A DNA stretch of 11,081 nucleotides, taken from the NCBI RefSeq assembly GCF_003334315.1, contig NZ_QOWR01000086.1; one strand, written 5' to 3'. This stretch comes from Escherichia coli (GTDB lineage Bacteria > Pseudomonadota > Gammaproteobacteria > Enterobacterales > Enterobacteriaceae). The position numbers were made by a program, and so were the translations under genes. A model generated the notes under the pieces. The model did not search any database and had not been told where the DNA came from. It saw only the letters and a list, made by a program, of their open reading frames with translations. This document shows positions 4,766 through 11,081 of the stretch, in pieces. The number at the start of each line of letters is the position of its first letter. Positions within the stretch are counted from its first letter, which is position 1.

Positions 4766-4797
4766 AATAAAAAAGGCCCCCCGATTTGGGAGGCCTT
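4766..4797 (-). terminator. pheA attenuator (intrinsic terminator of the pheL leader transcript)
   Basis: Minus strand reads GGCCTCCCAAATCGGGGGGCC followed by TTTTTTATT, a GC-rich hairpin plus U-run. It sits between the pheL stop (4844) and the pheA start (4745). Confidence 0.85.
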
Positions 4798-4843
4798 ATT
4801 GTTCGTCTTCGCATTCTGTTTCACACGACGAAACGCCTCCCAT

Positions 4844-4891
4844 TCAGGGGAAGGTAAAAAAGAATGCGAAGAAAAACGGTATGTGTTTCAT
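4844..4891 (-). CDS. pheL: pheA leader peptide (Phe-rich attenuation peptide)
   Basis: Minus strand ATGAAACACATACCGTTTTTCTTCGCATTCTTTTTTACCTTCCCCTGA translates [15 protein letters not shown]: 15 aa with 7 Phe codons. Too short for the ORF track; found by reading the sequence. Confidence 0.9.
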
Positions 4892-4916
4892 GTTTGTTTC
4901 CTTAAGTGACTTTAGT

Positions 4917-8187: not shown

Positions 8188-8249
8188 CCTAAAGAATCAA
8201 GACGATCCGGTACGCGTGATTTTCTTTTCACATTAATCTGGTCAATAAC

Positions 8250-8278
8250 CTTGAATAATTGAGGGATGACCTCATTTA
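8250..8278 (+). promoter_or_regulatory. Candidate sigma-32 (heat-shock) promoter of clpB
   Basis: CTTGAA at 8250..8255 and CCTCATTTA at 8270..8278, separated by 14 nt. This fits the sigma-32 consensus (CTTGAA ... CCCCATNT). clpB is a known heat-shock regulon member. Confidence 0.6.
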
Positions 8279-8316
8279 ATCTCCAGTAGCAACTTTGATC
8301 CGTTATGGGAGGAGTT

Positions 8317-10890
8317 ATGCGTCTGGATCGTCTTACTAATAAATTCCAGCTTGCTCTTGCCGATGCCCAATCACTTGCACTTGGGCACGACAACCAATTT
8401 ATCGAACCACTTCATTTAATGAGCGCCCTGCTGAATCAGGAAGGGGGTTCGGTTAGTCCTTTATTAACATCCGCTGGCATAAATGCTGGCCAGTTGCGCA
8501 CAGATATCAATCAGGCATTAAATCGTTTACCGCAGGTTGAAGGTACTGGTGGTGATGTCCAGCCATCACAGGATCTGGTGCGCGTTCTTAATCTTTGCGA
8601 CAAGCTGGCGCAAAAACGTGGTGATAACTTTATCTCGTCAGAACTGTTCGTTCTGGCGGCACTTGAGTCTCGCGGCACGCTGGCCGACATCCTGAAAGCA
8701 GCAGGGGCGACCACCGCCAACATTACTCAAGCGATTGAACAAATGCGTGGAGGTGAAAGCGTGAACGATCAAGGTGCTGAAGACCAACGTCAGGCTTTGA
8801 AAAAATATACCATCGACCTTACCGAACGAGCCGAACAGGGCAAACTCGATCCGGTGATTGGTCGTGATGAAGAAATTCGCCGTACCATTCAGGTGCTGCA
8901 ACGTCGTACTAAAAATAACCCGGTACTGATTGGTGAACCCGGCGTCGGTAAAACTGCCATCGTTGAAGGTCTGGCGCAGCGTATTATCAACGGCGAAGTG
9001 CCGGAAGGGTTGAAAGGCCGCCGGGTACTGGCGCTGGATATGGGCGCGCTGGTGGCTGGGGCGAAATATCGCGGTGAGTTTGAAGAACGTTTAAAAGGCG
9101 TGCTTAACGATCTTGCCAAACAGGAAGGCAACGTCATCCTATTTATCGACGAATTACATACCATGGTCGGCGCGGGTAAAGCCGATGGCGCAATGGACGC
9201 CGGAAACATGCTGAAACCGGCGCTGGCGCGTGGTGAATTGCACTGCGTAGGTGCCACGACGCTTGACGAATATCGCCAGTACATTGAAAAAGATGCTGCG
9301 CTGGAACGTCGTTTCCAGAAAGTGTTTGTTGCCGAGCCTTCTGTTGAAGATACCATTGCGATTCTGCGTGGCCTGAAAGAACGTTACGAATTGCACCACC
9401 ATGTGCAAATTACTGACCCGGCAATTGTTGCAGCGGCGACGTTGTCTCATCGCTACATTGCTGACCGTCAGCTGCCGGATAAAGCCATCGACCTGATCGA
9501 TGAAGCAGCATCCAGCATTCGTATGCAGATTGACTCAAAACCAGAAGAACTCGACCGACTCGATCGTCGTATCATCCAGCTCAAACTGGAACAACAGGCG
9601 TTAATGAAAGAGTCTGATGAAGCCAGTAAAAAACGTCTGGATATGCTCAACGAAGAACTGAGCGACAAAGAACGTCAGTACTCCGAGTTAGAAGAAGAGT
9701 GGAAAGCAGAGAAGGCATCGCTTTCTGGTACGCAGACCATTAAAGCGGAACTGGAACAGGCGAAAATCGCTATTGAACAGGCTCGCCGTGTGGGGGACCT
9801 GGCGCGGATGTCTGAACTGCAATACGGCAAAATCCCGGAACTGGAAAAGCAACTGGAAGCCGCAACGCAGCTCGAAGGCAAAACTATGCGTCTGTTGCGT
9901 AATAAAGTGACCGACGCCGAAATTGCTGAAGTGCTGGCGCGTTGGACGGGGATTCCGGTTTCTCGCATGATGGAAAGCGAGCGCGAAAAACTGCTGCGTA
10001 TGGAGCAAGAACTGCACCATCGCGTAATTGGTCAGAACGAAGCGGTTGATGCGGTATCTAACGCTATTCGTCGTAGCCGTGCGGGGCTGGCGGATCCAAA
10101 TCGCCCGATTGGTTCATTCCTGTTCCTCGGCCCAACTGGTGTGGGGAAAACAGAGCTTTGTAAGGCGCTGGCGAACTTTATGTTTGATAGCGACGAGGCG
10201 ATGGTCCGTATCGATATGTCCGAGTTTATGGAGAAACACTCGGTGTCTCGTTTGGTTGGTGCGCCTCCGGGATATGTCGGTTATGAAGAAGGTGGCTACC
10301 TGACCGAAGCGGTGCGTCGTCGTCCGTATTCCGTCATCCTGCTGGATGAAGTGGAAAAAGCGCATCCGGATGTCTTCAACATTCTGTTGCAGGTACTGGA
10401 TGATGGGCGTCTGACTGACGGGCAAGGGAGAACGGTCGACTTCCGTAATACGGTCGTCATTATGACCTCTAACCTCGGTTCCGATCTGATTCAGGAACGC
10501 TTCGGTGAACTGGATTATGCGCACATGAAAGAGCTGGTGCTCGGTGTGGTAAGCCATAACTTCCGTCCGGAATTCATTAACCGTATCGATGAAGTGGTGG
10601 TCTTCCATCCGCTGGGTGAACAGCACATTGCCTCGATTGCGCAGATTCAGTTGAAACGTCTGTACAAACGTCTGGAAGAACGTGGTTATGAAATCCACAT
10701 TTCTGACGAGGCGCTGAAACTGCTGAGCGAGAACGGTTACGATCCGGTCTATGGTGCACGTCCTCTGAAACGTGCAATTCAGCAGCAGATCGAAAACCCG
10801 CTGGCACAGCAAATACTGTCTGGTGAATTGGTTCCGGGTAAAGTGATTCGCCTGGAAGTTAATGAAGACCGGATTGTCGCCGTCCAGTAA
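8317..10890 (+). CDS. clpB: ClpB disaggregase (Hsp100/Clp AAA+ chaperone)
   Basis: Track ORF 8305..10890; the start is taken at the ATG at 8317 ([18 protein letters not shown]...), giving 857 aa. GGGAGGAG Shine-Dalgarno at 8307..8314. Two Walker A motifs (GEPGVGKT and GPTGVGKT) and a coiled-coil middle domain. Confidence 0.95.
8749..8763 (+). promoter_or_regulatory. Internal translation initiation site for the short ClpB isoform (ClpB-80)
   Basis: In-frame GTG at 8761 (codon 149), preceded by GGAGGTG (8749..8755) with a 5-nt spacer. E. coli clpB is known to yield a truncated isoform from an internal GTG at codon 149. Confidence 0.65.
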
Positions 10891-10895
10891 ATGAT

Positions 10896-10922
10896 AAAAC
10901 GAGCCCTTCGGGGCTCGTTTTT
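10896..10922 (+). terminator. clpB intrinsic terminator
   Basis: CGAGCCC (10900..10906), loop TTCG, GGGCTCG (10911..10917), followed by TTTTT. It begins 6 nt after the clpB stop. Confidence 0.85.
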
Positions 10923-10985
10923 GTCTATAAGTTAGACGGAAAAGACTATATTTAAGATGTTTTGCCTGAAAAGTGAGCGAACGAT

Positions 10986-11042
10986 AAAGTTTTTATATTT
11001 TTCGCTTGTCAGGCCGGAATAACTCCCTATAATGCGCCACCA
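10986..11042 (+). promoter_or_regulatory. rRNA operon P1 promoter (UP element, -35 TTGTCA, -10 TATAAT, GC-rich discriminator)
   Basis: AT-rich UP-like stretch AAAGTTTTTATATTTTTCG, then CTTGTCAGG (-35 at 11006..11011), a 16-bp spacer, TATAAT (11028..11033), discriminator GCGCCACC and inferred start A at 11042. This matches the canonical rrn P1 sequence TTGTCAGGCCGGAATAACTCCCTATAATGCGCCACC. The rRNA genes lie beyond the window. Confidence 0.85.
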
Positions 11043-11081
11043 CTGACACGGAACAACGGCAAACACGCCGCCGGGTCAGCG

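Follow-up and report, generated by a model that had tools for sequence, protein, structure and literature searches.

The closest described systems to the promoter analysed here are the seven rrn P1 promoters of E. coli K-12, among which rrnB P1 has a mechanism established by work of the Gourse laboratory. The position of rrnG P1 behind clpB has reportedly been in the literature since the 1980s, with later papers citing Shen, Squires and Squires from 1982, and the UP-element and FIS work on rrn promoters reported by Hirvonen et al. in 2001 is likewise cited in later papers. Across rrn P1 promoters, the literature quotes effects of 20-50-fold for UP elements and of 3-8-fold for FIS sites, and it counts rrnG P1 among the UP-element promoters. 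rrnG is the second strongest of the seven rrn promoters, and FIS shifts an rrnG promoter fragment, giving more than six complexes in gel shifts (Maeda et al., 2015, PMC4696680); the same paper puts the number of FIS sites previously reported for rrnG at three.

Within the 11,081-nucleotide stretch of Escherichia coli DNA that we analysed (the window), positions 10896-11081 are almost certainly the clpB/rrnG junction, comprising the intrinsic terminator of clpB and then the complete rrnG P1 control region (Table 1). The feature is the known, already characterised rrnG P1 lying behind the clpB terminator, and is in that sense ordinary: P1 sits about 100 bp behind the terminator, and clpB is co-oriented with rrnG. 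A 382-base query (window 10700-11081) found matches in 5426 of 5426 complete E. coli genomes, covering at least 80% of the query length in 5420 and reaching 100% identity in many. The query occurred at a median of four places per genome because its last ~80 bases are common to four rrn operons; the unique 115 bases from the clpB stop to the -35 hexamer were found in every one of the 5426 genomes, almost always as a single copy. Coordinates for clpB were transferred from one genome (locus L001, 4618-7191, offset +3699) that is 100% identical over the 382-base query. Gene order in this identical genome is pheA, pheL, raiA, bamD, rluD, yfiH, clpB, 16S, tRNA-Glu, 23S, 5S and kgtP, and the K-12 annotation likewise gives clpB, a 442 bp gap and then rrsG.

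Table 1. Features of the clpB/rrnG junction, in window coordinates.
Feature	Position	Strand	Basis
clpB CDS (ATP-dependent chaperone ClpB)	8317..10890, stop codon ending 10890	+	RefSeq annotation, 100%-identical genome
clpB intrinsic terminator	10896..10922	+	RNA fold: G+C-rich hairpin, then U-run
Candidate distal FIS site GTCTATAAGTTAGAC, centre -112, abutting terminator T-run	10923..10937	.	Full match to GNNYRNNWNNYRNNC, score 9.6
Candidate FIS site I GCCTGAAAAGTGAGC, centre -71	10964..10978	.	Full consensus match, score 9.6
UP element CGATAAAGTTTTTATATTTTTCG, -60 to -38	10982..11004	+	A+T content; same position as rrnB UP element
-35 hexamer TTGTCA, rrnG P1	11006..11011	+	Promoter scan, direct reading, K-12 alignment
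Spacer, 16 bp (suboptimal length)	11012-11027	+	Promoter scan
-10 hexamer TATAAT	11028..11033	+	Promoter scan, direct reading, K-12 alignment
G+C-rich discriminator GCGCCACC	11034..11041	+	Direct reading; identical in rrnB/A/C P1
Inferred start +1 = A 11042, plus first 40 nt of P1 leader	11042..11081	+	Identity to rrnB P1

Three further observations concern clpB and the genes upstream of it. The open reading frame list starts clpB at 8305 (861 aa), compared with 8317 (857 aa) in RefSeq, and an internal-start product, ClpB80, is also annotated for clpB in K-12. An Rfam match to the sRNA RyfD (125 bits) covers 8198-8336 on the plus strand, running from just before clpB across its annotated start at 8317, and a very abundant Term-seq 3' end is recorded at K-12 2734153, which corresponds to window 8337 (Adams et al., 2021). 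Upstream of pheA, at 4767-4892 on the minus strand, the window carries an Rfam match to the Phe leader (132 bits).

A sequence-only reading of the window had predicted that an rRNA operon would begin just past its end, co-oriented with clpB, and rrnG is found there in the 100%-identical genome. Extending the sequence downstream recovered the P2 promoter, the leader boxA and the 16S gene that this reading had proposed looking for. P2 (TTGACT-16-TATTAT) lies 118 bp past P1 in that genome and the leader past the window contains a boxB hairpin, boxA TGCTCTTTAACAA and boxC; 16S starts 252 bp past the window end (Rfam SSU rRNA, 1579 bits) and is followed by tRNA-Glu, 23S, 5S and kgtP. The features specific to rrnG are thus all present, namely the clpB and kgtP flanks, tRNA-Glu in the 16S-23S spacer and unique sequence upstream of -40, and among the 5426 complete E. 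coli genomes we found no identical genome whose downstream DNA was without rRNA genes.

We then compared the promoter base by base with the seven K-12 rrn P1 promoters, aligned in register with the window; as a check of register, consensus 15-mers were recovered in the aligned rrnB row at -71, -102 and -143, the known centres of the rrnB FIS sites. Over -160..-61 the window matched K-12 rrnG at 100 of 100 positions and the other K-12 rrn operons at merely 29-43 of 100, and the UP element matched that of K-12 rrnG at 23 of 23. Over the core the window was identical to rrnB, rrnA and rrnC P1 (38/38 over -37..+1, 39/39 over +2..+40), and its sole difference from K-12 rrnG over -160..+40 fell at +37 (11078), which is A here and G in K-12. 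TTGTCA-16-TATAAT has 11 of 12 consensus matches in a promoter scan in which the shuffled region averages 0.5 hits. The discriminator is of the GCGC type, with C two bases past the -10 hexamer, and the start, placed at 11042 because of the identity to rrnB P1, lies 9 nt past the -10 hexamer. The earlier claim of an rrn P1 core at the window end (UP element, TTGTCA, 16-bp spacer, TATAAT and discriminator) therefore withstood comparison with the rrn P1 references, every element lying where it had been placed.

Could the promoter instead be a chance sigma-70 look-alike, or an rrnB, rrnA or rrnC promoter joined to clpB by an assembly error? The core from -37 on is identical in four operons, the 382-base query accordingly hits four loci per genome at the median, and draft assemblies are often broken at this junction (many draft contigs in a scan with ClpB end there, as would be expected of a repeated rRNA operon), all of which would suit such an artefact. 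However, the 115 bp upstream are single-copy and contiguous with clpB across the 5426 complete genomes, the window matches K-12 rrnG throughout -160..+36, and the order clpB-rrsG-gltW-rrlG-rrfG-kgtP is annotated in a complete genome, so this reading is refuted and we give it virtually no chance of being correct.

The +37 position also bears on an observation from published RNA 3' end mapping. An orphan, abundant RNA 3' end is recorded at +41 of the rrnG P1 transcript (Adams et al., 2021; window-equivalent 11082, K-12 2731408 on the minus strand), immediately beyond the 3' side of a leader stem predicted to span +2..+38. We infer that rrnG alone received this call because its G at +37 in K-12 allows reads to be mapped uniquely; at 11078 the window carries A.

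The UP element is 78% A+T, compared with 50% for the whole window, and shares 13 of 23 positions with the UP element of rrnB. Its distal half resembles the UP consensus, and its proximal half is a T-run where the consensus has an A-run. Among the E. coli strains sampled, the region varies at 10973 (G/A, a non-consensus position of FIS site I) and within the UP element at 10983 (C/T) and 10989 (A/G), with no changes at consensus FIS positions or in the core hexamers.

FIS sites had been expected, without being located, in the gap at 10925-10985, roughly 60 bp of A+T-rich DNA between terminator and UP element, and at the level of sequence this expectation was borne out by two full matches to the core rules. 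Every window position was scored on the motif rules summarised in Hancock et al. (2016, PMC4784862), which ask for G at -7 and C at +7, for Y-R steps at +/-(3-4) and for an A/T-rich centre and which exclude G at -8 and C at +8; the score penalised a G at -8. The cores at 10923-10937 and 10964-10978 conform in full to these rules for high-affinity binding and are most likely FIS sites of rrnG P1. Their score of 9.6 is reached by just 6 of ~11,060 window positions, two of which are these sites in the stretch from the terminator to the -35 hexamer. The plain consensus GNNYRNNWNNYRNNC occurs 22 times in the whole window, compared with 23.2 expected from shuffles, and two of the 22 fall within the 84 bp between terminator and -35 hexamer; because the plain consensus occurs at chance frequency, both assignments rest on position, score and conservation and not on the pattern alone.

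In the aligned promoters, candidate site I lines up with rrnB site I (GGTTGAATGTTGCGC, likewise at -71). Sites of consensus grade with this centre were found in six of six Enterobacterales (E. coli, Citrobacter, Superficieibacter, Enterobacter, Photorhabdus and Providencia), with variation at the non-consensus positions. In each of the four Enterobacteriaceae genera the distal candidate begins immediately after the T-run; Citrobacter, Superficieibacter and Enterobacter retain its consensus positions but differ at the others. Citrobacter werkmanii has an 11-bp deletion relative to window 10941-10951, between the two FIS-like sites, so that its distal site is centred at -101 instead of -112 but is still flush with the terminator.

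The flush placement admits a different reading, in which the conserved GTYTA...YRNNC block at 10923-10937 is kept as the distal part of the terminator U-tract and not for FIS, the FIS sites of rrnG lying elsewhere. The left half of the block (GTCTA or GTTTA) is U-rich in RNA and contiguous with the U-run in four of four Enterobacteriaceae, and the FIS consensus alone is frequent by chance. Against this reading, the right half-site, which lies 11-15 bp past the U-run, also keeps Y, R and the terminal C in four genera although its other positions change (TTAGAC, CCAGGC, ATGAGC and ATAGCC). The distal site and site I are 41 bp apart in three genera and 30 bp apart in Citrobacter, a difference of one helical turn that leaves both sites on the same face of the DNA, and the base at -8 of the distal site is T and not the inhibitory G. 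We consider the U-tract reading rather unlikely and retain 10923-10937 as the candidate distal FIS site.

Candidates were placed for two of the three FIS sites reported for rrnG, the best remaining candidates for a third being weak. One, centred at -153 (10882-10896), scored 7.6, has no terminal C and spans the clpB stop codon; another, at -91 (10944-10958), scored 7.0 and has one half-site only. On the opposite strand, a promoter-like TTTTCA-16-TATAGT (9/12; 10945-10972, minus strand) overlaps FIS site I and points toward clpB, and is probably a chance match in A+T-rich DNA.

We examined the clpB terminator by direct folding, and the hairpin and T-run claimed at 10896-10922 were confirmed. 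An A-tract (10896-10899) is followed by the stem CGAGCCC (10900-10906), the loop TTCG (10907-10910), the returning stem GGGCTCG (10911-10917), the T-run (10918-10922) and then GTCT. The 7-bp G+C stem with its UUCG loop, followed by UUUUUGUCU, folds at -13.2 kcal/mol alone; with the A-tract/U-tract extension the value is -20.3 kcal/mol, a fold matched by 0 of 200 shuffles (z = -5.5 to -6.3). A calculated terminator score is clearly positive (d ~32). An automated terminator scan reported nothing at 10896-10922; given the strong hairpin and U-run seen on direct folding this is a false negative, and we infer that it arose because the scan's stem extension consumes the T-run. Term-seq tables list no 3' end between K-12 2731408 and 2734153, in cultures grown without heat shock (Adams et al., 2021).

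The reverse strand of 10885-10935 folds too (-17.7 kcal/mol, z -6.4) and continues with UUUUAUCAUUU, so the terminator appears, from its sequence, to be bidirectional. In E. coli NCTC10444, unrelated DNA replaces everything to the left of ~10903 (compared with window 10871-10903), so that the hairpin has a shorter left arm, and the stretch examined, which reaches ~50 bp past the ~10903 breakpoint, has no annotated clpB. This change may be an insertion or a rearrangement breakpoint inside the terminator.

How far the junction is conserved was assessed by scanning one genome per species with the ClpB C-terminus and comparing loci among the matches listed, in which Salmonella, Klebsiella and Yersinia do not figure. 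The order of clpB stop, terminator, 60-100 bp, A+T-rich block, -35 hexamer and CCCTATAATGCGCC was found in at least eight further species, comprising, among the matches listed, Citrobacter, Superficieibacter, Enterobacter, Photorhabdus, Providencia and three Vibrio. A terminator hairpin stands at the equivalent place in nine of nine species examined among these matches, with sequences that are unrelated outside the Enterobacteriaceae, and the Superficieibacter hairpin carries a compensatory A-T to G-C change. The three Vibrio species show clpB, a terminator and an rrn P1-like promoter CTATAATGCGCCTCC, and in V. bivalvicida 16S was confirmed downstream of clpB. The clpB-rrn linkage is absent at the inspected loci of Aeromonas, Shewanella and two Pasteurellaceae (Haemophilus and Rodentibacter) among the matches listed, Pseudomonas and more distant scan matches lying outside the inspection.

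Because the hairpin is strong, heat-stable and conserved, the contribution of clpB read-through to rRNA synthesis is, on the evidence of sequence, probably negligible. The sequence-only reading had called such read-through plausible, and nothing in the present analysis supports a meaningful role for it. The competing account holds that heat-induced clpB read-through adds meaningfully to rrnG transcription or interferes with P1, making the junction a regulated coupling device in place of a plain insulator. Such leakage is conceivable given the U-run, whose five U are followed by G (UUUUUGUCU), so that termination is probably incomplete, and given that clpB and rrnG are co-oriented and ~120 bp apart; the absence of a clpB terminator 3' end from the Term-seq table fits as well, although low clpB expression without heat shock explains it equally well. 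Yet the hairpin, with its cUUCGg loop, still folds at -9.9 kcal/mol at 50 °C, which rules out a heat-labile terminator, and its clearly positive terminator score is on the same side. The terminator is also kept in nine of nine species among the matches listed despite unrelated hairpin sequences, which argues for insulation. The firing rate of rrn P1 exceeds that of a heat-shock mRNA promoter by orders of magnitude, and on this general ground leaked transcripts would make up a tiny fraction. A literature search on clpB-rrnG read-through found nothing relevant, and we regard regulated coupling as highly improbable, with simple insulation the preferred reading.

A different extension of the insulator idea would join the distal FIS site to the clpB terminator in a single composite and conserved insulator. 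The candidate FIS core starts right after the U-run (10923), so a polymerase at the termination point would have to overlap FIS-bound, bent DNA. FIS might then serve as a roadblock, making termination more efficient when growth is fast; where FIS is scarce, heat-induced clpB transcription might run on into rrnG or clear the upstream activating region. Four Enterobacteriaceae genera keep terminator and FIS-like site in this flush layout, with clpB-rrn linkage extending as far as Vibrio among the matches listed. We consider the composite insulator very unlikely; if it holds, a nucleoid protein would here be shaping termination beside the cell's strongest promoters, a small but neat case of its kind.

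Taken together, these elements suggest a junction at which clpB transcripts would end at the hairpin-plus-U-run terminator, and where the next ~120 bp carry, in order, the candidate FIS sites centred on -112 (distal) and -71 (site I), the UP element, the near-consensus sigma-70 core, the discriminator and the predicted start A at 11042. The rrnG P1 core is identical to that of rrnB P1, and by analogy the same regulatory behaviour would be expected of it. FIS dimers upstream and the UP element would recruit RNA polymerase through its alpha C-terminal domains, and the 16-bp spacer and G+C-rich discriminator would give a short-lived open complex, through which ppGpp/DksA and the initiating NTP would control the promoter. 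P1 would drive synthesis of 16S-tRNAGlu-23S-5S in fast growth, with P2 and the boxB-boxA-boxC antitermination leader downstream. Beyond correct annotation the significance of the locus is small; what the analysis adds is exact coordinates for the promoter elements, the placement of two candidate FIS sites and a modest conservation result.

Set against the known systems, the locus is closest to K-12 rrnG P1, with which it shares the same sequence from -160 to +40 save one base, the same clpB upstream and the same 16S-tRNAGlu-23S-5S and kgtP downstream; at the exception, +37, K-12 rrnG has G and window 11078 has the A found in rrnB, rrnA and rrnC. It resembles rrnB P1 in its identical sequence from -37 to +40, in a UP element at -60..-38, in FIS site I at -71 and in the P2 and boxA leader downstream. 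The two differ farther upstream, where rrnG and rrnB P1 are identical at 43 of 100 positions beyond -61 and where the second FIS site lies at -112 in rrnG (a candidate) compared with -102 in rrnB. The position of rrnB site III (-143) is in rrnG taken by the clpB terminator hairpin (-142..-125). At the more distant clpB-rrn junctions of Vibrio the best FIS-like site is at -82, compared with -71 in E. coli.
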